From the IMG/VR virus record IMGVR_UViG_3300045988_152054: a DNA stretch of 47,606 nucleotides; one strand, written 5' to 3'. This DNA comes from a virus. Of this stretch, positions 4,630-25,263 are shown in pieces; position 1 is the first letter of the stretch, and each line of letters opens with the position of its first letter. The notes beneath the pieces were generated by a model, which was not told the origin of the DNA, ran no database searches, and saw only the letters and a program-made list of their open reading frames with translations. Made by a program: the position numbers and the translations under genes.

Positions 4630-5568
4630 CTAATCATATTTAACATTTATATAATCAAGCACTTCTTTTAATCCCAGCTTGTCCATACAATATTTATACT
4701 GTTTTGGATGCGTATATTTTAATCTTTGAAATCTATTAGGTTCTTTTTCCAGATGACATCCAAACATACAATATATACATCCTGTTCTTTTTTCTCCTGT
4801 TGTTCTATAGTATTTATTGCCTAGCATGTCGCTTTCTTCTACTATGTCTCCATATACTGAACATATTTTCAAATCATTTTTAACTATATATTGAAGCACA
4901 TCTTGTTCTGTCCAAAATCCCATTGGTTGACTTCTGCCTGTATTAAAAGCATTGCATCCAGTTTTAAGATATGCAGCTTCTCTTTGTTGTCCTTCATCTG
5001 CCATAGTTGCTATGAAAGGTACTTTTCCAGCTCTCTTTTCATACTCTTTCATTGGTTTTTTCTTTAGTTCATTACAACATTCATCTGAAATTTTAAAAGG
5101 AGCATCTAATAGAAATTCCCATTTCTTTTTATTAAACTTAGATCCTTCTTCTAATCCCCTTATTTGTCTAACTCTTAATGTATCTTTTCCATCAGCTATA
5201 TTTTTTCTAGCTAATCTTACTGTATTAGATACAGCTTTACTCACTATTGGATATCCTTTTTCTTTAATAACTTTTTTAAATGTTATATTTGGCTTTATTA
5301 TAGTTACATTATCAAATGTTTTTACAAATTGTACTATCTCTGGGAACTCTAACCCAGTATTACTGAACACTGCTTCTATATTTGGGTAAATACTTCTTAC
5401 TATATGTAACAATACTGTACTGTCTTTTCCTCCACTGAAACTTATATATACTCCATCTTCTCCATAGTAATCTACCCATTCTCTTATTCTTAATTTAGTT
5501 TTTTCTACTTTAAGATCTAAGGGATAATTCTGCAATAATTTCAATTCACTTTTTAACACTAACCTCAC
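4630..5568 (-). CDS. Phosphoadenosine-phosphosulfate (PAPS) reductase family / PP-loop ATPase protein
   Basis: PP-loop SFSGGKDS near the N-terminus and C-terminal Cys cluster TGCIYCMFGC. The start codon (GTG) is uncertain. Confidence 0.75.
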   Translation of the reverse strand: MRLVLKSELKLLQNYPLDLKVEKTKLRIREWVDYYGEDGVYISFSGGKDSTVLLHIVRSIYPNIEAVFSNTGLEFPEIVQFVKTFDNVTIIKPNITFKKVIKEKGYPIVSKAVSNTVRLARKNIADGKDTLRVRQIRGLEEGSKFNKKKWEFLLDAPFKISDECCNELKKKPMKEYEKRAGKVPFIATMADEGQQREAAYLKTGCNAFNTGRSQPMGFWTEQDVLQYIVKNDLKICSVYGDIVEESDMLGNKYYRTTGEKRTGCIYCMFGCHLEKEPNRFQRLKYTHPKQYKYCMDKLGLKEVLDYINVKYD

Positions 5569-5655
5569 CTATTTCAATTCATATTTTCATTTGACTATCA
5601 TTAGTAAATAAGAATAGGGAACTACACTGGTATTGCATAATCCCCTATTTAGTTG

Positions 5656-6012
5656 TTATTTTATCCCCAAATATTCTTTTATTACTGCTATTGCATCATC
5701 TGCACTCCAGCAAACCTTACACATATATCCCTGCTTATATAACCAATCTAGCCATTTAGCTTGTTCTATGGTACATTTATTCTTTCCATATTTCATCTCT
5801 ATTGCTAGTCCTAAATATTTACCTTTAGGTGCTAGGAGTAAGATGTCCGGCACTCCAGCCCTCATTCCTAATTTTTTTAATTTAGCTCCATATTTAGGTG
5901 ATCTTTTACTTTCGTTAGGACAATGAAATATCCACTTTAATTCTTCATATTTACAAGATTGCAAATTGCACCATTGAATTACAGTAGCTTGTTCTAAATC
6001 TTCACCTTTCAT
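5656..6012 (-). CDS. VRR-NUC domain nuclease
   Basis: The PD-(D/E)xK-type core is GVPDILLL...LAIEMK. Length of 118 aa is typical. Confidence 0.7.
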   Translation of the reverse strand: MKGEDLEQATVIQWCNLQSCKYEELKWIFHCPNESKRSPKYGAKLKKLGMRAGVPDILLLAPKGKYLGLAIEMKYGKNKCTIEQAKWLDWLYKQGYMCKVCWSADDAIAVIKEYLGIK

Positions 6013-13526: not shown

Positions 13527-13766
13527 TTGAAAGGTGAAATAATTTTGATTAAAACAGCAAGAAAAAAACATAAATTAACACAAAAGGAACTCGCAGAACG
13601 TTGTAATTTGTCGCAAAGTTTTCTGAGTGAATTAGAAAATAAGCATAATAAAAAGAATGTAACTATCAAGCAAATAGTAAAATTAGCAAATATATTAAAA
13701 ATAAATCATCATGAATTGGCATGTTGGTTTATAGACAAGGAATTAGGGGTGTTTGAAGTTGGATAA
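13527..13766 (+). CDS. XRE-family HTH protein co-oriented and overlapping with the integrase gene
   Basis: LTQKELAERCNLSQSFLSELENKHNK. TTG start is uncertain (13527 or 13545). It overlaps the int start by 14 nt. Confidence 0.6.
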   Translation: MKGEIILIKTARKKHKLTQKELAERCNLSQSFLSELENKHNKKNVTIKQIVKLANILKINHHELACWFIDKELGVFEVG

Positions 13767-14895
13767 TATCAAGAGTACTTTTATAAGAAAAAGAAATAAT
13801 AACTACAATGTTATAGTTGAATACTATGACGAAGCTGGCAAAATAAAACAAAAAAGTATTGCTAAATACGGATTAAAGAAAAAAGCAGAAAGGCATCTAA
13901 TAGAACTAAAAGCAGAAATACAAAATGAGAAATATATGTTTAGTAATGATATAACTGTTACTGATAGATGCTACAGATATATTAATGAAAATAAACGTGA
14001 TTGGTCGCCTTATACAGTAAAAAATAGATTAAGTTGGGTAAAATTAAATGTAGCTCCATTTTTCAAAGATACTAAAATGGAAAACTTAACAATTCACCAA
14101 ATTCAAAGATATTTAAATTATCTTTATGAAAATTTTACTGTTGAAAGTGCTAAAACAAGATTTGGTTTTTTTAGGTCAGTAGTAAAAGAATGCTATAGAA
14201 TGAAAGAAATAAAAGAAAATTTATGTGACTTTGTAAAAAGCCCTAAAAAAGAGGCTTCAAGTATAGCTGATGTTTATACAAGGGAAGAAATTTTACAACT
14301 CTTTAAATTGTTAGAAGATAAGCATTTTGAACTTCCAATTTTACTTATAGTACTTTTAGGACTTAGAAAAGGTGAAGCATACGGACTTACATGGGATGAT
14401 ATTGATTTTGATAACAACACAGTTAAAATAGAACAAATTTCTATTTATCTAGACGGAAGTTTAATTTTTAAATCTCCTAAAACAACTGATAGTAAAAGAT
14501 TATTATCTGTTCCGATTGAGCTCATGGATAAGCTAAAAAAGGAAAAGCTAAAACAAAATGAATTAAAACTTCAAGGTGTTTTAGAAAATAAATATAATTT
14601 GGTTTGCTTAAATAAAGAATTAAAACCATATAAAAATGATGATTTAAATAGATACTATCGAAAGTTTTGCAAAGAAAATAATTTTAGACAGTTAAGAATA
14701 CATGATTTAAGACATACTAATGCAACATTATTATTATTATCTGGTACAGATATGAAAACTGTATCTGGAAGGTTAGGACATACAGATATCAAAATAACAA
14801 TGAATAAATATAGTCATGTATTAGAAGAAATGGATAGAAAGGCAAGTGAAAATCTTAGCAATATATTATTTAACCAAAAGTCAACAGGTAATTAA
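13753..14895 (+). CDS. int: Tyrosine site-specific integrase
   Basis: N-terminal arm-binding-like NNYNVIVEYYDEAGKIKQKSI. Catalytic region ..LRKGEAYGL..HDLRHTNATLLL..GHTDIKITMNKYSHV (R, HxxR, H, Y). Confidence 0.9.
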   Translation: MKLDNIKSTFIRKRNNNYNVIVEYYDEAGKIKQKSIAKYGLKKKAERHLIELKAEIQNEKYMFSNDITVTDRCYRYINENKRDWSPYTVKNRLSWVKLNVAPFFKDTKMENLTIHQIQRYLNYLYENFTVESAKTRFGFFRSVVKECYRMKEIKENLCDFVKSPKKEASSIADVYTREEILQLFKLLEDKHFELPILLIVLLGLRKGEAYGLTWDDIDFDNNTVKIEQISIYLDGSLIFKSPKTTDSKRLLSVPIELMDKLKKEKLKQNELKLQGVLENKYNLVCLNKELKPYKNDDLNRYYRKFCKENNFRQLRIHDLRHTNATLLLLSGTDMKTVSGRLGHTDIKITMNKYSHVLEEMDRKASENLSNILFNQKSTGN

Positions 14896-15162
14896 TGTAA
14901 GTCTTATTTTGTGGCAGTCAATTTGTCAGTTTTATAAAAATGTCAGCTAAAAATCAAGTCAAATGTATAGCAAATAATATCAATATATATTAAGAAGAGT
15001 AAGCAGTATACACATTTATATAAATATATATTACTGCTTACTTATACTTAATTACTCATATACTGAGTACTTCTATATGTATAAAAGTGTGTATTTTTAA
15101 AGTGTACGCTTGGTTGATTCATAACTTTTGTCAGTTTTAAGTCAGTAAGCATAAAAAACTAA
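14896..15162. other. Candidate attP region
   Basis: Non-coding DNA directly after int. ttgtcagtttta occurs twice (14923-14934, 15128-15139) along with further gtcag motifs. There is an 11-bp inverted repeat agtaagcagta/tactgcttact (14998-15008 / 15032-15042) and tactca-N5-tgagta. Confidence 0.45.
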
Positions 15163-15182
15163 TGATTAATCCACAGTTTTTA
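15163..15182. repeat. Right copy of the perfect 20-bp inverted repeat (tgattaatccacagttttta), followed by a perfect DnaA-box consensus TTATCCACA at 15188-15196
   Basis: Seen directly in the sequence. Confidence 0.9.
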
Positions 15183-15241
15183 AGAAGTTATCCACAACTT
15201 ATTTTATGATATAATTAAAATAAAAAATGGGGGTATACTTT

Positions 15242-15442
15242 ATGATAAGTTATGATCCATTATGGAAACTACTAATAGATAAAAAAATTACCAAAACAGA
15301 ATTGAGGGAAAAAGTAGGCTTTAGTACAAATACTTTGTCAAAACTTTCTAAGAATGAATCTGTGACATTAAGTATATTAGAAAAGATTTGTTTATGTCTA
15401 AATTGTAAAATAGAAGATGTAGTAGAAATAAAAAAAGAGTAG
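15242..15442 (+). CDS. Small XRE/Cro-type HTH transcriptional regulator
   Basis: ITKTELREKVGFSTNTLSKLSKNESV. ATG at 15242 lies 8 nt after GGGGG. Confidence 0.65.
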   Translation: MISYDPLWKLLIDKKITKTELREKVGFSTNTLSKLSKNESVTLSILEKICLCLNCKIEDVVEIKKE

Positions 15443-15448
15443 GTTATC

Positions 15449-16012
15449 CTACTCTTTTATTTGTTCTATTAAATCACTTAAATCAAGTTTACATTCTCTT
15501 ATATCTAATATATTATCATTTTTACATTTTTTATTACTTACACATAAAATTGAAGGCTCAAAAGGAAAATATTCTTTATATACCTTTTTATAATGTAAGT
15601 CTAAATATTTATTTAAATTTAATTTTTTAGTTCTTTCAACTTCACAATAATATATTTTTATTTCTTCATTAATTCTCAATACTAATAACAAATCAACTAT
15701 AACTTTATCAATTTTAAAAGGGCATCTATATTTTAATATTTCTATATTATTTTTCATAAGTTCAGCTATAATTTGTGAACATACTATTTTATGTTTCCAT
15801 TGAACTGGTTTTCTTCCAGTATAGAAAATATTTTGCCCTGGTATACTTTCTCTAAAACACTTAACATAATTTATTGTGATTAATTTTTTCATTCGTGCTT
15901 GGCAACTTCTTAAACTTCCATTAAAAAATATAATTGATAAACTTTTAGTATCACAAATACCCATTTCATCAATAAATTCTTTGATTTTTTGATCTCTATT
16001 TGTAATTATCAT
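15449..16012 (-). CDS. Replication-relaxation (Replic_Relax) family protein
   Basis: N-terminal winged-helix-like ..RDQKIKEFIDEMGICDTKSLSIIFFNGSLRSCQARMKKL.. and later ..YYCEVER.. It is paired with an FtsK-like gene, as this family commonly is. Confidence 0.55.
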   Translation of the reverse strand: MIITNRDQKIKEFIDEMGICDTKSLSIIFFNGSLRSCQARMKKLITINYVKCFRESIPGQNIFYTGRKPVQWKHKIVCSQIIAELMKNNIEILKYRCPFKIDKVIVDLLLVLRINEEIKIYYCEVERTKKLNLNKYLDLHYKKVYKEYFPFEPSILCVSNKKCKNDNILDIRECKLDLSDLIEQIKE

Positions 16013-16020
16013 ACTATCAC

Positions 16021-17238
16021 CTACAATTTATCTAAAAATGATAAGTCACTTAATTTTTTGACCTTCTCATTCGCTCCAGTAACGTTTTTATTTCCTTCGT
16101 CTTGTAACTTATCCTTTAAGAAATTCAAGCTCTTAGAAGTGCCTTTATTTTGATATTTTAAGGTATAGTCCTTAACTTGATCATCTGTGATAAAATATCC
16201 TTGAAATTCTTCTATATTAGCACCATTTTTTATAAATCCATGCCCATTTCCTCTTAATTTTTCTGCTCCTTCTTCATCAAGTGCTACTACACTATTTTTT
16301 CTATCTTCACATTTTAAAACTATACGATTGTTTATGTTAGCTTTTACTATATTATCTATAACTGTATTATCTGGTCTTTGTGTAGTTAAAAAAACATAGC
16401 ATCCACTTGCTCTACTTATAGCAATTAATTGTTTTAATAATTTCATTGCACTTTTATTTTTATCTTCTAGTAGCATAACTATTTCTTCTATATACAATAC
16501 CTGATATTTAAGTTTCTTAACTCCTTTAAGCTTATTATATTCAAATATGTTAGTTACCTCATTTTCCATAAATAAATTATATCTTCTTCTAGTTTCTTCT
16601 AATAAATTGCTTATAACTTCAGTTGTATCTTCTACTGTATATACAAATTTTTTCGTGTGTTGTAAATTCCTAAATAAATTAAGCTCTACCATTTTTAAAT
16701 CACATAAATATAATTCAACTTCATTTGGGCTGTATAAATTAACTATGCTAGTGAGTATTACTTTCGTCATAACAGACTTACCACTTCCAGTTGTCCCAAC
16801 TACATAAGTATGAGGATTTTCTTTTAAATCTAATGTTATTGTCTTATTTGAAGATTTACCTATATTAAATTTAATATGTTTAGCAGTTCTATTTTGAATT
16901 TCATACTCTATAACTTTTGGTAATTTCTTTAACATCTCTATTCTAACCCAGCCACTAGATGCTTCCATTTTAACTCCATTGTTTAAATATAATTCTAGTG
17001 CATCTTTATGCTTTAAAAAATCATCAACGCTTAATCCAGCAGGAACAAATACAACAAATACAGTTTTATTATCTATAACAACCTCTGGATATTCACCTAA
17101 ACTATTTTTTATATTTACTGCCTTAAAAAATTCATCTAAACTTTTCTTTGGCTCTATCCATCCATCAAATACCCATGTAAAAAATATTTTTCCAGCATCC
17201 CAAAATAAATCAAATATAGGTTGAAGTGCATTACTCAT
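16021..17238 (-). CDS. FtsK/SpoIIIE-family DNA translocase ATPase
   Basis: Walker A is VVGTTGSGKSV. Walker-B-like QVLYIEEIVML. Also ..FLTTQRP... No clear N-terminal transmembrane helices. Confidence 0.8.
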   Translation of the reverse strand: MSNALQPIFDLFWDAGKIFFTWVFDGWIEPKKSLDEFFKAVNIKNSLGEYPEVVIDNKTVFVVFVPAGLSVDDFLKHKDALELYLNNGVKMEASSGWVRIEMLKKLPKVIEYEIQNRTAKHIKFNIGKSSNKTITLDLKENPHTYVVGTTGSGKSVMTKVILTSIVNLYSPNEVELYLCDLKMVELNLFRNLQHTKKFVYTVEDTTEVISNLLEETRRRYNLFMENEVTNIFEYNKLKGVKKLKYQVLYIEEIVMLLEDKNKSAMKLLKQLIAISRASGCYVFLTTQRPDNTVIDNIVKANINNRIVLKCEDRKNSVVALDEEGAEKLRGNGHGFIKNGANIEEFQGYFITDDQVKDYTLKYQNKGTSKSLNFLKDKLQDEGNKNVTGANEKVKKLSDLSFLDKL

Positions 17239-18154: not shown

Positions 18155-18168
18155 AGGAGATGTTGAAT

Positions 18169-19101
18169 ATGATTAAAAAATTAATAAGTATTTTAACATC
18201 ATGTATATTAGCAGGAAGTTTAATGGTTGGATGTAGTGAGGATACTACAAAGAATTTAGATGAAAAAGGAAAACAAGCATTAGCCACAACGAAGAAAGAA
18301 GAACATGACTATAAAAAAGTAACTGAATTAACCCTTAGCAATGATTATGAGGATGAATATGTTGAAATAACAGGTACAGTTAAAGAATTCAAAACTGAAT
18401 ATAACACTATGATAATTACTTTAGATTTTGAAAAAGCAATATTACCAGTATATGTACACATCCCTAAAAACATGGTTGATGTTAAATTTGAGGTTGGTGA
18501 TACAATAATAGCATACGGAAGATGTTGCGGACTTAGAAAAAGATCAGATGAAAGATACTTCCAAATTAATGCTTATTTCTTAAGTAAGACTCCAATAATT
18601 AAAAAAGAACAATCAAATCAAAATAAAGAAAATAAAACTAATAGTAAATCAACAGATAATAATAAATTAGAGAACAATAATCAGTCAACAAATACAACTA
18701 AGAAAGTTCAACAAACTAAAAAGAAAACAGTAAATGAACAAAAACAACAAAAGGAAAAAACTAAACCATATGTAGATGAAAAAAATAACGTATATGTCGA
18801 TGAAGATGGTAATCGTCAACCATTAGTAAAACATGATCATATGACAGAAGAGTATGATAAACAACCCAAATGTCCAGAATGTGGTTATCCAGTAGATGAT
18901 TGTCACTGTAATGGTGATGGTAATACAGTTGACGAAGAAGATGATAATTATAACTGGGACTACTACGATGAGCCTATGGATGAGGATAGTTGGAATATTA
19001 ATAATGATAAACAACAGGAACAAGAAGAAACACAAACACAACAAGATAATAACCAATCACAACAATACAATAGCAAAGATGATGAAGAAATCCTTAATTA
19101 A
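18169..19101 (+). CDS. Lipoprotein with OB-like core, long polar low-complexity linker and Cys/His cluster (possible superinfection-exclusion protein)
   Basis: The signal peptide plus lipobox is MIKKLISILTSCILAGSLMVGC. Later motif CPECGYPVDDCHCNG. ATG at 18169 lies 10 nt after AGGAGA. Confidence 0.7.
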   Translation: MIKKLISILTSCILAGSLMVGCSEDTTKNLDEKGKQALATTKKEEHDYKKVTELTLSNDYEDEYVEITGTVKEFKTEYNTMIITLDFEKAILPVYVHIPKNMVDVKFEVGDTIIAYGRCCGLRKRSDERYFQINAYFLSKTPIIKKEQSNQNKENKTNSKSTDNNKLENNNQSTNTTKKVQQTKKKTVNEQKQQKEKTKPYVDEKNNVYVDEDGNRQPLVKHDHMTEEYDKQPKCPECGYPVDDCHCNGDGNTVDEEDDNYNWDYYDEPMDEDSWNINNDKQQEQEETQTQQDNNQSQQYNSKDDEEILN

Positions 19102-19108
19102 AAATAAA

Positions 19109-19137
19109 GCTGGTAAGGAAATTAATCCCTACCAGCC
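19109..19137. terminator. Bidirectional terminator between convergent lipoprotein and endolysin genes
   Basis: agctggtaagg / ccctaccagc stem flanked by A-run and T-run. Confidence 0.6.
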
Positions 19138-19143
19138 TTTTTA

Positions 19144-20022
19144 TTATACTTTCTTTATATATTTAGTTGATGCAGTTATGTATAAACCTGATTCTAAGCG
19201 ATACATAGGAGTATTTCCATTTTTAGCACCTACTGTATCTATTACTTGTAGATGTTGCCCCTTCTTAACTGTTGCAACTGGATCTGCATCCCAATCTGCT
19301 ACTTTTCTTATATTAAGTTTATCAAGTGTTATTATTTCAAATTTCTTTGTAGTTGCTTTAGTTTCTTCCTTCTTAGGTTCTGCTTTTTTCCCTTCTACAT
19401 AGTTTTTTACATCTTTTATGAAATGAGCAAACCCATCAGGAGAACATCCATATCCCCAAAATGCAGTGCCTGGACAAGTTTTAGCACTTCTTGAAGGATT
19501 ATATTTTCCTAAGTAAGTACCACCGGCAGCAAACCAACAGTGAGGTCTTATATGTGAAGTATTTACAGGGATATTAAATCTTTTACATAACTCTCCATAT
19601 AGATATATAACTGCCTTCTTTTGTGCGGATGTCATTTTGTCATGTCCTTTGTCAAAACAACCATATATTTCTATACAAATTGCACCTGTATTCCAACCTC
19701 TAATACCGATTGGAGTACTATTAAGGTTTCTACCAGTTGTTATTTTCCCATCTAAAAAAACATTAAAATGTTGTGCTATATAATGACCATGTCCATCACT
19801 ATAATGCCATTTGCTTTTTCCATAACTATCTAAAGATTGTGTTCTCCCAAAGTGTGGCTCTGAAAATACTTTTTTATCAGTTTTTTCCCATGTACTATAA
19901 TTTGGTAAATCCATATGGTGTACTTGTAATTTTGTTATTGTTCTACTCACCTTTTGTTTTGCTAACCATTCCTTTACATCTTTTTCATTTTCTAATAATG
20001 TAAAACCATTTTTAGTCTTCAT
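19144..20022 (-). CDS. Endolysin: N-acetylmuramoyl-L-alanine amidase (Amidase_2/PGRP) with C-terminal SH3b-like wall-binding domain
   Basis: ..VHHMD..GHYIAQHFNVFLDGKITTGR..NTGAICIEIYG..HIRPH..KTCPG. C-terminal ..LNIRKVADWDADPVATVKKGQHLQV... Confidence 0.85.
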   Translation of the reverse strand: MKTKNGFTLLENEKDVKEWLAKQKVSRTITKLQVHHMDLPNYSTWEKTDKKVFSEPHFGRTQSLDSYGKSKWHYSDGHGHYIAQHFNVFLDGKITTGRNLNSTPIGIRGWNTGAICIEIYGCFDKGHDKMTSAQKKAVIYLYGELCKRFNIPVNTSHIRPHCWFAAGGTYLGKYNPSRSAKTCPGTAFWGYGCSPDGFAHFIKDVKNYVEGKKAEPKKEETKATTKKFEIITLDKLNIRKVADWDADPVATVKKGQHLQVIDTVGAKNGNTPMYRLESGLYITASTKYIKKV

Positions 20023-20294
20023 TATTTATCACCTTCTTGGTTTTCAATTAAATTTTTAAAAGCTTGATGAAGTCCTACAGAACTTAAACCACTCAACATC
20101 CCTCCTAGTAATACATTTACATTAAAATAGCCTGCTATAAAGTAGTTTAAAACCACTCCTATGCAGGCCATGATTAATGGTATATATTTATTAGGTATAA
20201 AATCTAAACTTGTTTTTATTACATATCCAATACAACAACATACTAATATTACTGCAACTACTAAATAATTACTTATAACACTTAAATCTAACAT
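20022..20294 (-). CDS. Holin
   Basis: 90 aa with multiple hydrophobic helices and a charged C-terminus. It lies immediately upstream of the endolysin and overlaps it. Confidence 0.7.
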   Translation of the reverse strand: MLDLSVISNYLVVAVILVCCCIGYVIKTSLDFIPNKYIPLIMACIGVVLNYFIAGYFNVNVLLGGMLSGLSSVGLHQAFKNLIENQEGDK

Positions 20295-20528
20295 TTATCT
20301 CTCTCCTTTATTTTCTAATTCCTTTATTTTTTCTTCAACAACGCTCATTCTACTTATAAGATTATTATGCTTATCCACCCTATTACTCAGAATAGATATA
20401 TCTTCTTTTATATTCTTTATCTGTTCTTGTATTACTGCAGTTGTCTTGTTATTGCTAAAGTAAGAACCTGCGAGAGTTCCAACAAATGCTAATATTGCAA
20501 CAATTATTTCTGTATTCATAGACAACAC
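20295..20528 (-). CDS. xhlA: XhlA-like membrane protein (lysis-associated)
   Basis: N-terminal TM helix IIVAILAFVGTLAGSYF followed by a coiled coil. Position before the holin is as in PBSX-like cassettes. Confidence 0.55.
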   Translation of the reverse strand: MLSMNTEIIVAILAFVGTLAGSYFSNNKTTAVIQEQIKNIKEDISILSNRVDKHNNLISRMSVVEEKIKELENKGER

Positions 20529-20530
20529 CT

Positions 20531-20806
20531 CTATTCATGTTTAACTCTATCTTTTAACTCATCTAACTTTGCATCATTCCAAGTTGTTGTATCGCCCACC
20601 AAATAGCCAGTTATACGTCTTATACGTTTAAATGGAATTGGAACTACTTCATATTTCAAATCAACATAATCACCATCTAATTTTACAACCAGGCTTTTAA
20701 TTTGTTGCCCCGGATTTTTCTTTTGAACATAATCTATATATGCCTGTTTCTCTCTTTCATCTAATTCTACTGTACACCCTTCTTCATTCCAGCAATGAAA
20801 ATCCAT
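20531..20806 (-). CDS. Stand-alone NrdD C-terminal glycyl-radical-domain-like protein (91 aa)
   Basis: The C-terminus is ..FKRIRRITGYLVGDTTTWNDAKLDELKDRVKHE. It matches the RxxGYL glycyl-radical loop and the (F/W)NxxKxxExxxRVKH tail of class III RNR. RBS AGGGGTGA. Confidence 0.6.
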   Translation of the reverse strand: MDFHCWNEEGCTVELDEREKQAYIDYVQKKNPGQQIKSLVVKLDGDYVDLKYEVVPIPFKRIRRITGYLVGDTTTWNDAKLDELKDRVKHE

Positions 20807-20825
20807 AATATCACCCCTTTTTTGT

Positions 20826-20860
20826 ATTAAAAAAGGACCTAAAATTAATTAGATCCTTTA
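20826..20860 (-). terminator. Rho-independent terminator (minus strand)
   Basis: aaaggaccta (20832-20841) / tagatccttt (20850-20859). The single mispair is a G-U on the minus-strand RNA. A U-run follows. Confidence 0.55.
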
Positions 20861-20867
20861 ACTTTCC

Positions 20868-20966
20868 CTATATTGATTTATAAAGTACAATTATCCCTAT
20901 TATAGACAGAATACCTATTAATATGCCTATTAAACATAATACTAACGCTATATATAATAAAGCCAT
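20868..20966 (-). CDS. Small hydrophobic membrane peptide (32 aa)
   Basis: RBS AAGGAG. MALLYIALVLCLIGILIGILSIIGIIVLYKSI. Confidence 0.45.
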   Translation of the reverse strand: MALLYIALVLCLIGILIGILSIIGIIVLYKSI

Positions 20967-21074: not shown

Positions 21075-24000
21075 CTATTCTGTTATATTTCTAATAATTA
21101 AATTGTTATAAGTAGCATTACTTAAATTATGTCCTTGTTTTGCACCTATTTGAATGGACTTCAATTTAGCGAAATTACTCATATACGAAGCATACGCGCC
21201 AACTTTATTTCCGGCATATCCAGTAACTAAATCATCATTCACATATAGACCATTTTTATTTAATCTTATATTTAAATTAAAATCATTTAATGCTATTACA
21301 CTTCTTGCAAAAGCGCCTTTATCATCTGTAAAGTTAATTTGCAATTCTTTACTTGCTTGGTCATAATACATATGCATATTACATCCTGCCCAATTGGCTA
21401 TATCATTACCTGCACTAAATATTACTTCATTTACATTTTTACAAGTTGCTAAATCTATTTCACAATAAATTTCCTTACTATTCCCATCAAATTCACCATC
21501 GTATAAACTAATTCGAGAAGTTCCGTTTCCGTGAACAGGTGTAAAAGAAGAAGTTGCTGTTGCATTAGCAGTTATAACTATATTTCCAGTAACAGAATTA
21601 ATTGTTATTACTCCATTAGAGTATGATGTAGATGTTATATCTACTCCTCCCATAGTAACTGTTACATTTCCTAGTTTGTAATTAATATTTGCAGTTATAG
21701 TAGCTAAATAATTACCATTCTCTTTTATTGTAGTAGATACATTTGAATTTATACAGTTAGTTAAGTTATTAGTTATGGTATAGTTTTTAACAGTCCCAGG
21801 ATAATCGTATATAGTTGGTTTTGTAGCATCTATAAAACTTTGTTTAGTTTTTTGAGTTAATGTTGTTTTATCTCCTTTTACTACAGTTATTGATTTTTCT
21901 GATAAATTATCACCATTTGCTTTTATAATCATATTTCCCCTTACACCATTATGTTTTACAACACATAAAACTTTTCCGTTAAATGCTGATTTTATATTTA
22001 TTCTATATTTTTCAACACAAGTAGCATCACCATTATCTGTACCTACAATTGTTCCGCCTTCTACAGTAAAAGTAATTTTATTGTTTGCAGTTGGTACAAT
22101 TACTCCATTTTTATCTACTATATCACAAGTTATAAATACTAAATCATCTGAACCTATATTAACATTTGTTTTGTCAGTGGATAATTTGACTGTTGTTGGT
22201 GTACCTTGAGAAGTATATATTATATCTTGTGCTACAATATCGCCACTTTGATTATATCCATTAGCAACTAGAGTTCCTTTTGTATATGTGACAGAATATT
22301 CAAATTGATATTTATTACCTATCCCAGTTTGTAATTTTTCACCTAAACTTTTACCATTTAAAAATAATCCTACTTTATAACAATTTGAATATAACCAAAC
22401 TTTTATATTCCCATCTGTCCAATCCCAATGTGGCAAAATATGTACCATTGGATTGTTAGTCCATCTTGATTGATACATATACATTATATCCTTTGGAAAA
22501 CCGCAGGTATCATAGATTCCAAAATAACTAGATTTAGTAGGATATTTATTAAATGGTGTAGGTTCTCCTATATAGTCAAACCCAGTCCATACAAACATAC
22601 CTGCTAAATAATTAATATCTGTCATATGTTTTTTTAATTCTATGCTTGCATATTCACCCCAATTTACTTTGTCATCATCAAAACTAGAACATTGTTTATT
22701 AGTATTATCCCTAGCATAAACACCCCTAGATGATAAAGCTGAAGTTGTTTCAGAACCATAAATGGATTTGTTTGGTATGGCAGTTTTAACAGATGAATAT
22801 TCGGATGATGAGCCATAATTTACTCCGATAACATCTAATAATTGCATACAATCTTGGGATATTGAATTGGTTGGAGTATCATCACCCATTGTGACCATTC
22901 TTTCATTATCAATAGCTTTTATCCAATTAATCATATTTTGCACGAACCCTGTAGCCGTAGCAGAATCATAAGATGAAGATGTTCTTATAATTTCATTTCC
23001 TATTGACCACATAATTATAGATGGGTTATTTTTATCTCTATTTATTGTATTGTCAATAACTTCTTTTGCATGGCTGTTATAGTATCTAGCAAAATCATTT
23101 GATTTTTTAGCACAAGTCCAACAATCAAACATTTCTTCTATTGTTAATATTCCCTTTTCTGCACAAACATTTAAAAATTCAGAACTTCCTGGGTTATGAG
23201 TGATTCTAATTGCATTAACACCCATATCTATTAATAAATCAATTTGTCTTTCTATTGCTGATTTATTTACTTCAGCTCCCAAACATCCTAAATCATGATG
23301 CATACATACACCTCTTAATTTAAGATTTTTACCATTAAGCCAAAATCCAGTATCTTTATCAAATTTAAAATATCTATATCCATATTTAGTTTCAGAAGAA
23401 TGATAGATAACTTCTCCTTCTTTTACGTATGTTTTTAATGTATATAAATTTCCACTATATTCGTCCCATAAAGTTGGATTATTTATCTGTATAGTATCTG
23501 TAACTGAATTACTTCCTATAGATAAAGTTATTTCTTTTGTATTTGATTTTACTAAAGAATTATTAAAATATATTTCATTTACTAAATTTACAGTTTTGGC
23601 TGCAGTTGAGTTAATTTTTATATCTATTTTTGTATTTGCAATATTTGTTTTCACATCAGTTTCTAGTGTTGGAGTTGTTATTTTAATATCGTTTATTCCT
23701 ATTTCAACATCATTTGCAGATACTAAATAAGCATTTCTTATTATACCACTTCCACTATACCATCTTGAGCTAGGTTGTTGGTTTCTAACAAATACTGCTA
23801 ATGTATCATTGTTATCATATTGTAAATAATCAGTTATTTCTACATAGAATGGATTATACCATTTATTATCTTTCACTTTTGTTCCATTGATATATACATC
23901 ACTTTCCATATAAATTCCATCAAAATAAATATATACTTTTTGACCTTCTAATTTAGCAGTCTTTAATTTAAATCTATACCAAGCATCTCCACCATCCAAA

Positions 24001-25244
24001 TATCCACCTTCATACCCTGAAGGAGAACTAGAATTAAATGAATTATATATACTCCAGTCATGAGGTATAGATATATTATCCCAAGAATCATCATTATAAT
24101 TTTTACCAGTTTCAGTTGTTGAATTATAACTTGTATCAGATGTAGAAGAAATTAATTTAAACTTACAATCAGATAATTTACTTAATGAATTAATTTTTAC
24201 AGTTGAACCTAATATTTGAGAAATTTTAGTTGCTAATTCTTGCCAACTATCATTGCTTGTCGCATTTATCCCTTTGCCAGTAATAGCTTGAGCAATTAAA
24301 TCTTTTCCATTACTGGCATTTTGAAAAACCTCATTTATTGCACCTTTTAAATCTTGTGCTGTTGTTTGTAATGTTTCGTCTCCTATTTGTTTCGCAATTT
24401 CTTTATATTGTGCAGTAACTTCATTAACTGCACCTTTAATATCTTTAGCAGTTGTAGTTAATTCCTCAGTACCTAAATCAGTTTTAATGGTATTTATATC
24501 ACTTTTTATTTCGGTATCATCATAAGATGTGCCAGTTCCACCTGCAGGTAATTCAGTACCACTATCTAATTTTGTTCCATCCTCTTTTGCTAGGTATATT
24601 TTCCCACCTTCTACTATAGATTTAGCAGGCATTTTATTTACTTTGTCTACATTGTCTTTTGCTACTTTTTCAAGTTTATTTAATTTTGCACTAGAGATTA
24701 CATCCCCATTTCCCCAATTAGTTTGATTGTAAGTTCCGTCACTATTATAAGTATCAATTGCATCTCCATCTAAACTAAGCATAGATACATCTGCTACAGC
24801 ACTGTTAACTGTTGCTATGTCACCTTCTTCAAACAATGGTTTTAGAATATGTACTGCACCTTTTATTATTGGAAGTGATCTTATACTTTCTTGACTTTCA
24901 TTAAGAAGTCTTAGTTGTAAATCATAATCTCCTAATTCAGTATCTTCATCTATTAATTGTCCCTCTATTACAAATACAACTTTACCATCGTCAGTAGCTT
25001 GTATTGGGAATTCCTTTTTCACCTCTGCATTTTTATACCACTTAACTTGTGCATAGGATGCTTTATATTTCACTAGTAAGTTACTTAAATCATCTGACTT
25101 ATATCTGTATTTATTATCTACAATTTCTATTAACAATTTAATATTTCTATCATTCTTATATAGAAATATTTCTTCATCTAATTTGGCTGTATTCTTTGAA
25201 ACTGTCAACTTACAATCGGTTGTGATGTAATCATTATTAGCCAT
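21075..25244 (-). CDS. Baseplate/tail-fibre protein: BppU-like N-terminus, collar repeats, glycoside hydrolase family 2 module and C-terminal beta-rich domains
   Basis: I take the ATG at 25244 (MANNDYITTD), after AGGAAGGTG. GH2 sugar-binding region ..SIPHDWSIYN..WYRFKL..YIYFDGIYMESDVYINGTKV. TIM barrel ..LRGVCMHHDLG..NAIRITHNP..IMWSIGNEI. ..MFVWTGFDYIGEP. Confidence 0.75.
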   Translation of the reverse strand: MANNDYITTDCKLTVSKNTAKLDEEIFLYKNDRNIKLLIEIVDNKYRYKSDDLSNLLVKYKASYAQVKWYKNAEVKKEFPIQATDDGKVVFVIEGQLIDEDTELGDYDLQLRLLNESQESIRSLPIIKGAVHILKPLFEEGDIATVNSAVADVSMLSLDGDAIDTYNSDGTYNQTNWGNGDVISSAKLNKLEKVAKDNVDKVNKMPAKSIVEGGKIYLAKEDGTKLDSGTELPAGGTGTSYDDTEIKSDINTIKTDLGTEELTTTAKDIKGAVNEVTAQYKEIAKQIGDETLQTTAQDLKGAINEVFQNASNGKDLIAQAITGKGINATSNDSWQELATKISQILGSTVKINSLSKLSDCKFKLISSTSDTSYNSTTETGKNYNDDSWDNISIPHDWSIYNSFNSSSPSGYEGGYLDGGDAWYRFKLKTAKLEGQKVYIYFDGIYMESDVYINGTKVKDNKWYNPFYVEITDYLQYDNNDTLAVFVRNQQPSSRWYSGSGIIRNAYLVSANDVEIGINDIKITTPTLETDVKTNIANTKIDIKINSTAAKTVNLVNEIYFNNSLVKSNTKEITLSIGSNSVTDTIQINNPTLWDEYSGNLYTLKTYVKEGEVIYHSSETKYGYRYFKFDKDTGFWLNGKNLKLRGVCMHHDLGCLGAEVNKSAIERQIDLLIDMGVNAIRITHNPGSSEFLNVCAEKGILTIEEMFDCWTCAKKSNDFARYYNSHAKEVIDNTINRDKNNPSIIMWSIGNEIIRTSSSYDSATATGFVQNMINWIKAIDNERMVTMGDDTPTNSISQDCMQLLDVIGVNYGSSSEYSSVKTAIPNKSIYGSETTSALSSRGVYARDNTNKQCSSFDDDKVNWGEYASIELKKHMTDINYLAGMFVWTGFDYIGEPTPFNKYPTKSSYFGIYDTCGFPKDIMYMYQSRWTNNPMVHILPHWDWTDGNIKVWLYSNCYKVGLFLNGKSLGEKLQTGIGNKYQFEYSVTYTKGTLVANGYNQSGDIVAQDIIYTSQGTPTTVKLSTDKTNVNIGSDDLVFITCDIVDKNGVIVPTANNKITFTVEGGTIVGTDNGDATCVEKYRINIKSAFNGKVLCVVKHNGVRGNMIIKANGDNLSEKSITVVKGDKTTLTQKTKQSFIDATKPTIYDYPGTVKNYTITNNLTNCINSNVSTTIKENGNYLATITANINYKLGNVTVTMGGVDITSTSYSNGVITINSVTGNIVITANATATSSFTPVHGNGTSRISLYDGEFDGNSKEIYCEIDLATCKNVNEVIFSAGNDIANWAGCNMHMYYDQASKELQINFTDDKGAFARSVIALNDFNLNIRLNKNGLYVNDDLVTGYAGNKVGAYASYMSNFAKLKSIQIGAKQGHNLSNATYNNLIIRNITE

Positions 25245-25263
25245 TTCAAACACCTTCCTTTCA

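Follow-up and report, generated by a model that had tools for sequence, protein, structure and literature searches.

A stand-alone NrdD-type glycyl-radical protein of gut phages and Clostridia is a candidate spare part or subunit for class III ribonucleotide reductase

The DNA analyzed here is a 47,606-nucleotide stretch of a virus (IMG/VR record IMGVR_UViG_3300045988_152054; hereafter, the window), and our subject is a small protein encoded on its minus strand that carries a stand-alone copy of the C-terminal glycyl-radical segment of NrdD, the class III ribonucleotide reductase (RNR). We give the name X to the family to which it belongs, whose members have 83 to 133 amino acids (aa) and join an N-domain (~56 aa, predicted to be folded) to a radical tail of the pattern RIRRITGYL...N..K..E..DR.KH. 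On comparative grounds, we think it rather probable that X is an autonomous NrdD-type glycyl-radical module that is activated by the host's NrdG and re-arms host NrdD in trans. To a wider proposal we would give about an even chance, namely, that the radical glycine of a two-component class III RNR can reside on a small exchangeable polypeptide, X, which is obligatory in Selenomonadaceae, an NrdR-controlled spare part in many Clostridia, and captured by diverse gut phages to re-arm the NrdD of their hosts. X is mainly a widespread cellular family borrowed by phages, not a phage invention. The original prediction, made from the window alone, had been of a phage spare part; its core idea, a trans-acting NrdD radical module, has gained strong independent support from NrdR boxes and nrdD-X-nrdG operons, and it is amended here in that the family is mainly cellular and that X appears to be obligatory, not a spare, in some bacteria.

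Oxygen irreversibly cleaves glycyl-radical enzymes at the glycine, and the small proteins YfiD and T4 Y06I rescue pyruvate formate-lyase (PFL) from this damage (PMC13450708; PMC8683613). A 2021 paper on YfiD speculated that spare-part proteins may exist for other enzymes (PMC8683613), and a June 2026 review lists them only for formate-lyases, their existence being undetermined for other glycyl-radical enzymes (PMC13450708). In keeping with the original remark that no characterized example was known, our literature searches, whose coverage was incomplete, turned up neither a spare part for NrdD nor a class III RNR in split form. Outside PFL, no candidate for a spare-part radical cofactor as strong as X precedes it, and the family is apparently undescribed.

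The open reading frame (ORF) in the window starts with ATG, ends in ...PFKRIRRITGYLVGDTTTWNDAKLDELKDRVKHE as the original prediction quoted it, and has the ribosome-binding site ascribed to it. Its parts are as follows.

20531..20806 including the stop codon, minus strand: X, a 91-aa stand-alone NrdD-type glycyl-radical protein (ATG ORF with NRDD, NCBIfam, and PDB tail matches)
20633..20806, minus strand: X N-domain, residues 1-58 (AlphaFold2 and family alignment; seen only in the X family)
20534..20632, minus strand: radical segment at the C-terminus of X, residues 59-91 (homology to the final ~30 residues of NrdD)
20600..20626, minus strand: RIRRITGYL motif, residues 61-69, with the predicted radical site Gly67 (alignment of 119 members)
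20812..20817, minus strand: Shine-Dalgarno sequence GGGGTG, 5 nt before the ATG of X (read from the sequence)

The Gly67 codon was read at 20606-20608 (gcc on the plus strand, that is, GGC), where it had been placed.

The assignment of the tail to the NrdD type is carried by several profile and structure databases. Residues 59-90 match positions 533-562 of the 562 in Pfam NRDD (PF13597) with a significant score of 29.1 bits (E 5.4e-7), above the gathering cut-off of 26.2 bits. The NCBIfam NrdD equivalogs match at E values of 7.7e-10 and 2.7e-9 over their last ~32 profile positions only, with 28-38 bits against cut-offs of 326-764. The tail also matches residues 708-738 of the Prevotella copri NrdD structure (PDB 8p23; E 1.7e-5) and PHROG 487, annotated 'NrdD-like' (E 9.6e-6), and alignment of the X family to NrdD C-termini with hhalign gave a probability of 99.2% (E 8.7e-20). 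The PFL-type Pfam family Gly_radical (PF01228) did not match X at a reporting limit of E 10. Because NRDD matches and PF01228 does not, the tail is NrdD-type rather than PFL-type, as had been proposed.

Beyond the tail, little of NrdD is present. X has the C-terminal RxxGY motif and the ...N..K..E...RV.H tail of NrdD, but the profile match leaves out the barrel with its catalytic cysteine finger loop, and the protein has no ATP-cone, 10-stranded barrel, catalytic cysteine loop, or conserved zinc-binding cysteines. The four-cysteine zinc ribbon that stands ahead of the radical loop in NrdD is likewise lacking: the two cysteines of the window copy, C5 and C11, vary across the family, and X therefore has no zinc site. 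The absence of barrel and zinc ribbon had been read correctly from the window. With the barrel, catalytic loop, and zinc ligands gone, X is not an NrdD despite its database naming, and the label 'anaerobic ribonucleoside triphosphate reductase' borne by its 90- to 91-aa relatives at NCBI (DAZ35279.1, DAL72371.1, DAO38710.1, and WP_412222990.1) is misleading for a protein without a catalytic domain. In a tblastn search with complete Clostridioides phage NrdD and NrdG as queries, the window gave no alignment of at least 80 aa; consequently, the flanks hold no degraded nrdD, in agreement with the original prediction, and since the phage itself encodes neither NrdD nor NrdG, X must act with host proteins.

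The N-domain is a different matter. Residues 1-58 had no match in Pfam, NCBIfam, PHROGs, or PADLOC, and the PADLOC search for defense systems returned no match for X. AlphaFold2, supplied with the family alignment, predicts a strand (residues 2-6), a helix (17-30), and a beta-hairpin (34-44 / 47-56), with block values of 71-86 for the predicted local distance difference test (pLDDT) across the domain; the radical loop and tail of the isolated model are of low confidence and flexible, with a helix at 78-85. A Foldseek search with this model found nothing significant (best E 0.096 in PDB and 0.038 in BFVD). An N-domain-only profile, run against 1.84 billion representatives at E values up to 1e-3, matched 284 clusters; among the 150 matches listed, nearly all were short, and none was of NrdD length. 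Most of the longer ones are frameshifted or chimeric metagenome ORFs (P0122, P0196, P0148, P0146, P0131, and P0180), a few have simple extensions (P0139 and P0262), and none of them is a fusion to NrdG.

Compared with the NrdD C-terminal domain in PDB 8p23, the last ~32 residues of X are clearly homologous, and the hairpin that precedes them may be equivalent to the zinc ribbon; compared with full-length NrdD, X has an additional N-terminal strand and helix. In its weakly supported part, the hhalign alignment pairs X hairpin residues 44-58 (DGDYVDL.Y...P.P) with the NrdD zinc-ribbon segment DCGYEN...CPxCG. To judge from this pairing, a relic of the zinc ribbon, stripped of its cysteines, may survive in the hairpin that leads into the radical loop, which amends the original statement that the ribbon is absent.

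A search of 5.8 billion proteins with the window copy as the query returned many proteins of 86-102 aa that span the entire query, the typical length in the family being about 85-100 aa. In an alignment of 119 members, E19, Y23, R63, R64, I65, G67, Y68, L69, N77, K80, E83, R87, and H90 are invariant, and D44, G45, L50, Y52, F59, R61, I62, T66, D86, and V88 are nearly so. The window protein has all the invariant residues and conforms to the family pattern of N-domain, F-x-R-I-R-R-I-T-G-Y-L, and NrdD tail. We examined the best 80 viral loci (IMG/VR) and the best 80 bacterial loci (species-representative genomes). In 80/80 of the former and 80/80 of the latter, X is stand-alone, short (83-133 aa), and equipped with the RIRRITGYL motif; the glycine is thus kept in every viral and every chromosomal locus examined, as the original prediction would have it. 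The bacterial carriers are mostly Clostridia, and carriers include Ruminococcus flavefaciens ATCC 19208 and FD-1, Oscillospiraceae, Marvinbryantia, Caproicibacter, and Christensenella.

Elsewhere in the family, two relatives (P0170 and P0172) keep the N-domain and a recognizable tail but have Asp in place of the radical glycine (RATDYL and RSADYL). One possibility is that these are paralogues without a radical, with a role as plugs or regulators.

Phage copies of X are under strong purifying selection. Between the window copy and close phage relatives, the ratio of nonsynonymous to synonymous substitution rates (dN/dS) is 0.06-0.10, at dS values that reach 0.9; across 119 pairs, its median is 0.13. 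One phage sequence (P0405) alone occurs on 468 contigs.

Bacterial operons connect X to class III RNR. A Bacillota metagenome-assembled genome (L132) carries, in order, a complete nrdD (779 aa), X (94 aa), nrdG, and nrdR. Its NrdD and its X share 32 identical residues, FERIRRITGYLVGTVDRFNNGKRAEEHDRVKH, which are encoded with 9 nucleotide differences, all of them synonymous; hence, selection keeps the spare tail identical to the resident one.

The Selenomonadaceae have a conserved operon, nrdD-X-nrdG, with tandem NrdR boxes ahead of it, in which NrdD (751-771 aa) stops right after the zinc ribbon and has neither the RxxGY motif nor a radical glycine. Its C-termini read ...CPRCGRTEAEHHQRIIIPRMNCCD, ...CPRCGRTEEEHHHRIVIPRICCS, or ...RIIIPRMCCSNA, with the shared ending ...CPRCGRTE.EHH.RI.IPR..CC. 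The two proteins divide Pfam NRDD between them, NrdD covering positions 1-540 and X positions 533-562 of 562, whereas the NrdD of L132 spans 1-562 by itself. The tail-less arrangement occurs in three species-level variants, and one Selenomonadaceae X sequence (P0311) lies on more than 500 contigs, those inspected carrying nrdD-X-nrdG. The genes concerned are as follows.

L168 2690-5775, L171 2700-5285, and L150 5593-8733: tail-less NrdD genes, with a 94-aa X between nrdD and nrdG
L173 (sibling contig of L171) 5272-5787: nrdG

Because the NrdD of this operon is tail-less, the sole radical glycine of the enzyme would come in trans from X, provided that the genome has no further, complete nrdD. 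The Selenomonadaceae operons look like a natural two-polypeptide class III RNR, and the same gene order makes X look like an obligatory subunit, not a spare, in some bacteria.

Two further observations concern divided or partial class III genes. On a 457-kb Selenomonas sp. contig (L174, 4854-5788), NrdR boxes precede an X-nrdG pair, and nrdD is missing from the 5 kb to either side. Separately, many ORFs of 170-290 aa correspond to NrdD from the barrel end onward, through zinc ribbon and radical tail, and to nothing before it (P0456, P0465, P0507, P0489, and P0498); they sit on long contigs of 24-194 kb and are therefore not contig-end truncations. Introns or inteins may have divided nrdD here, or these may be split forms of another kind. 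When the C-terminal 166 aa of a C. difficile-phage NrdD were used as the query, short C-terminal ORFs were found that all have the tail QRITGYLVGTT.RWN, and the only match with a named organism was to Muribaculaceae.

From our literature search, split RNRs were previously known for class II only, in the form of NrdJa/NrdJb of Pseudomonas aeruginosa, whose catalytic chain is encoded by two adjacent genes (PMC4520616, PMC9669993). There, as in nrdD-X, a C-terminal functional module is placed on a second gene. The class II enzyme differs in being B12-dependent and in that its second piece consists of an IscU-like domain, a zinc finger, and a reducing tail rather than a radical site; free-standing or phage-borne copies of NrdJb are not described in these papers (PMC4520616, PMC9669993), whereas X has both. 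The beta and gamma subunits of benzylsuccinate synthase and the gamma subunit of 4-hydroxyphenylacetate decarboxylase resemble X as small proteins that bind a glycyl-radical catalytic subunit. Unlike X, they have, to our knowledge, no radical glycine.

Regulation provides a second link to RNR. Chromosomal copies of X are usually monocistronic, in unrelated neighborhoods, and followed by a terminator. The NrdR box is 16 bp long with conserved C4, A6, A8, T9, T11, and G13, and boxes come in pairs separated by 15-16 bp (PMC13584703); we scored pairs within 250 bp upstream, requiring 5 or more of the 6 conserved positions in each box and a distance of 31-32 bp from box to box. Such a pair precedes 29 of 78 chromosomal copies (Clostridia), against a background of 0.009 pairs per 250 bp in the remainder of the same loci. 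A single box that agrees with the consensus at 13 or more of its 16 positions was seen in 36% of upstream regions, 0/75 downstream regions, and 1.3% of shuffles. Pairs are scarce in phage copies (3/77). The chromosomal distribution suggests that these X genes are co-regulated with RNR genes through NrdR and not by an obvious oxidative-stress signal.

The nearest functional precedents are GrcA/YfiD of E. coli and Y06I of phage T4 (IPR011140), which, like X, are small stand-alone copies of the C-terminal glycyl-radical segment of a large enzyme. X fits this description as a 91-aa protein with its own Shine-Dalgarno sequence that is stand-alone in 160/160 loci, and it shares with GrcA/YfiD monocistronic chromosomal copies and a known phage-borne example. 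The proposed logic is also the same, with activation by the cognate radical S-adenosylmethionine (radical-SAM) activase and subsequent insertion into the damaged enzyme (PMC13450708; PMC8683613). The families are nevertheless distinct. GrcA is PFL-type, with the motif RVSGY and the Pfam domain Gly_radical, and serves PFL, while X, in which neither PF01228 nor RVSGY was found, is NrdD-type, with the motif RIRRITGYL and the end of Pfam NRDD. The N-terminal half of YfiD is disordered (PMC13450708), and the N-domain of X is predicted to be folded. NrdR control of the chromosomal copies further sets X against GrcA, and X, not GrcA, is found as an apparently obligatory operon member beside a tail-less catalytic subunit. 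We know of no GrcA counterpart to an obligatory operon with a tail-less enzyme. X may work like GrcA at best, and it is not a member of the GrcA family.

In the window, X lies among late genes, which are listed here with the elements that bound them.

21075..25253, minus strand: tail-fiber / receptor-binding protein of 1392 aa with a GH2-like domain, upstream of X (ORF; Pfam Glyco_hydro_2 on the equivalent 1389-aa gene of L175)
20868-20966, minus strand: 32-aa wholly hydrophobic ORF in the interval from tail fiber to hairpin (no family match)
20827..20859, minus strand: terminator-like hairpin between the 32-aa ORF and X, with an 11-bp stem at 20832-20859 and a U-run at 20827-20831 (RNA folding)
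20295..20528, minus strand: 77-aa XhlA-like membrane / coiled-coil protein (phrog_1863, E 5.8e-8; phrog_937 'hemolysin')
20022..20294, minus strand: holin (phrog_1129 holin, E 5e-22; Pfam Phage_holin_5_2 on the identical gene of the relative L175)
19144..20022, minus strand: endolysin, an N-acetylmuramoyl-L-alanine amidase (PHROG endolysin/amidase families; Pfam Amidase_2)
19106..19139, minus strand: intrinsic terminator closing the late/lysis transcription unit (14-bp stem with 6 G-C pairs, then a T-run)

The order along the minus strand is thus tail fiber, 32-aa ORF, hairpin, X, XhlA-like gene, holin, amidase endolysin, and strong terminator, the XhlA-like gene starting 2 nt past the stop codon of X. 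The hairpin ahead of X (-12.6 kcal/mol, z = -2.44) recurs, with base changes, in related phages; owing to its few G-C pairs, it was missed by a consensus scan for terminators. A consensus scan found no minus-strand promoter between this hairpin and X. The X-XhlA-holin-amidase block is constant in relatives, while the fiber upstream is exchanged between sibling phages. In the sibling L176 (6097-9695), a GDSL-lipase fiber and a hexapeptide acetyltransferase stand where the window has the GH2-like fiber, which is a swap of the receptor-binding / depolymerase module.

The window represents a human-gut phage of ~47.6 kb, and several metagenomes contain it as an entire contig, 47,626-48,675 bp long; among relatives at the isolate level, the closest in the lysis region is a Terrisporobacter phage, which lacks X. 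Only in some phage lineages does X adjoin lysis genes, and elsewhere it lies near portal, terminase, RusA, or other genes. Since its neighbors differ in this way, X has been acquired in several settings, and the moron slot between tail fiber and lysis cassette that the original prediction described holds for the window and its lineage but is not a property of the family.

The tails of phage copies fall into two subtypes, GYLVGxxxxWN and the one-residue-shorter GYLSEVKQFN, on nearly identical N-domains, which suggests recombination within the tail. The comparison rests on the following positions.

L007-L031 and L042 against window 20534-20600: tail subtypes GYLVGDTTTWNDAK or the one-residue-shorter GYLSEVKQFNDAK

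The subtypes perhaps track different types of host NrdD.

Other features of the window bear on the lifestyle of the element. The interval from the lysis end to the early region contains a tyrosine integrase (13753-14895, plus strand), a 187-aa protein with weak similarity to replication initiators (15449-16012, minus strand), and an FtsK/SpoIIIE-like ATPase (16021-17238, minus strand), a trio (13753-17238) that is commoner in integrative/conjugative elements than in phages. Directly past the endolysin terminator and opposite the late operon is a gene for a predicted lipoprotein of 313 aa (18160-19101, plus strand), with a signal peptide and its Cys, a long Q/N/K/E-rich low-complexity region, a CPECG...CHC motif, and no PHROG or PADLOC match; it is likely a lysogenic-conversion gene.

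How X would act can be sketched by analogy with YfiD/GrcA and T4 Y06I on PFL, from which NrdG activation, NrdD docking, and an oxygen-repair role are all carried over. The radical-SAM enzyme NrdG of the host would remove the pro-S hydrogen from Gly67, whose flexible loop, RIRRITGYL, would be presented by the folded N-domain, which is possibly a cysteine-less descendant of the zinc-ribbon hairpin. Activated X would then dock on a host NrdD in which the radical segment at the C-terminus is absent, cut by oxygen, or unradicalized, and the glycyl-radical loop of X would enter the barrel beside the catalytic cysteine, whereby ribonucleotide reduction would be restored or raised. The phage would carry X as an auxiliary metabolic gene that sustains deoxynucleoside triphosphate (dNTP) synthesis in the host, for example, after transient exposure to oxygen. 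We hold the general idea of a trans-acting radical subunit with more confidence than oxygen repair specifically; rescue of oxygen-damaged NrdD by X is plausible on the PFL precedent.

Several points weigh against this proposal. Its support (tail homology, glycine invariance, purifying selection, and operon and regulon links) comes from sequence comparison rather than biochemistry. X sits with late lysis genes behind a terminator-like hairpin, a timing unlike that naively expected of a dNTP boost, and no NrdR pair lies within 250 bp upstream of the window copy. The radical loop is of low confidence in the isolated AlphaFold2 model, and not every X relative can carry a radical, given the Asp of P0170 and P0172. 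The Selenomonadaceae genomes may have a second complete nrdD elsewhere. Finally, an oxygen-cleaved NrdD keeps its zinc ribbon and the residues up to the glycine, which X must displace or adjoin. A retained enzyme segment is tolerated in PFL-YfiD (PMC13450708).

An alternative that we consider unlikely, though it deserves weight, is that X is a stoichiometric subunit or booster that raises or replaces the host's radical-bearing subunit whatever the oxygen damage, in hosts whose NrdD is split or routinely uses X, and so increases RNR capacity while infection proceeds. As the tail-less, obligatory-looking nrdD-X-nrdG operons demonstrate, an operon can have X as its sole carrier of the glycine, and the placing of chromosomal X under NrdR together with RNR genes, with no obvious oxidative-stress signal, agrees with such a role. 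Yet most copies in Clostridia are monocistronic and far from nrdD, the complete NrdD of L132 with an identical tail of its own beside X fits an accessory role, and the account presupposes a particular NrdD architecture in the host.

That X is instead a decoy or inhibitor, soaking up NrdG or plugging NrdD with a non-productive loop to stop the host's anaerobic dNTP synthesis, for the sake of host takeover, superinfection exclusion, or lysis timing, strikes us as quite improbable. Its place in the phage with late lysis genes and not replication genes would suit such a function, and the rare Gly-to-Asp relatives P0170 and P0172 could act only as non-radical plugs. However, this phage is without an RNR of its own, and a block of the host's would starve its replication; a plug would have no need of the invariance seen in the glycine and throughout the activase-recognition motif; chromosomal X is derepressed together with the RNR genes; and in Selenomonadaceae X is the only radical site of its operon. 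Still less probable, in our estimate, is another partner, such as a different glycyl-radical enzyme or process, for which the NrdD-like tail would be just a convenient NrdG substrate. An N-domain without recognizable fold relatives could mediate such an interaction, but all genomic links of X are to nrdD, nrdG, nrdR, and NrdR boxes, and the X tail in L132 tracks that of its cognate NrdD exactly. A non-functional nrdD remnant or annotation artifact, as the database name 'anaerobic ribonucleoside-triphosphate reductase' might imply of a fragment, is effectively refuted by the start codon and Shine-Dalgarno sequence of X, its conserved, family-specific N-domain, its occurrence in hundreds of independent genomes and phages, and a dN/dS of ~0.1, and a degraded or intron-split nrdD was rejected on the same N-domain and on the lack of nrdD sequence in the window.

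If X re-arms NrdD in trans, the question of whether spare-part repair exists beyond PFL would be answered, and the Selenomonadaceae enzyme would be the first glycyl-radical enzyme with its glycine off the catalytic chain. X offers an abundant and testable candidate for a repair part of the DNA-precursor enzyme of strict anaerobes, and tail-less NrdD, X, and NrdG together make a ready-made system for studying loop delivery in trans, substrate recognition by NrdG, and movement of the radical domain into and out of the barrel. For phages, X would add a new kind of gene to the auxiliary metabolic repertoire, one that provides a consumable cofactor part for a host enzyme and not an enzyme. The spare-part principle would thereby be carried over to class III RNR, with a previously unreported split enzyme as a by-product.

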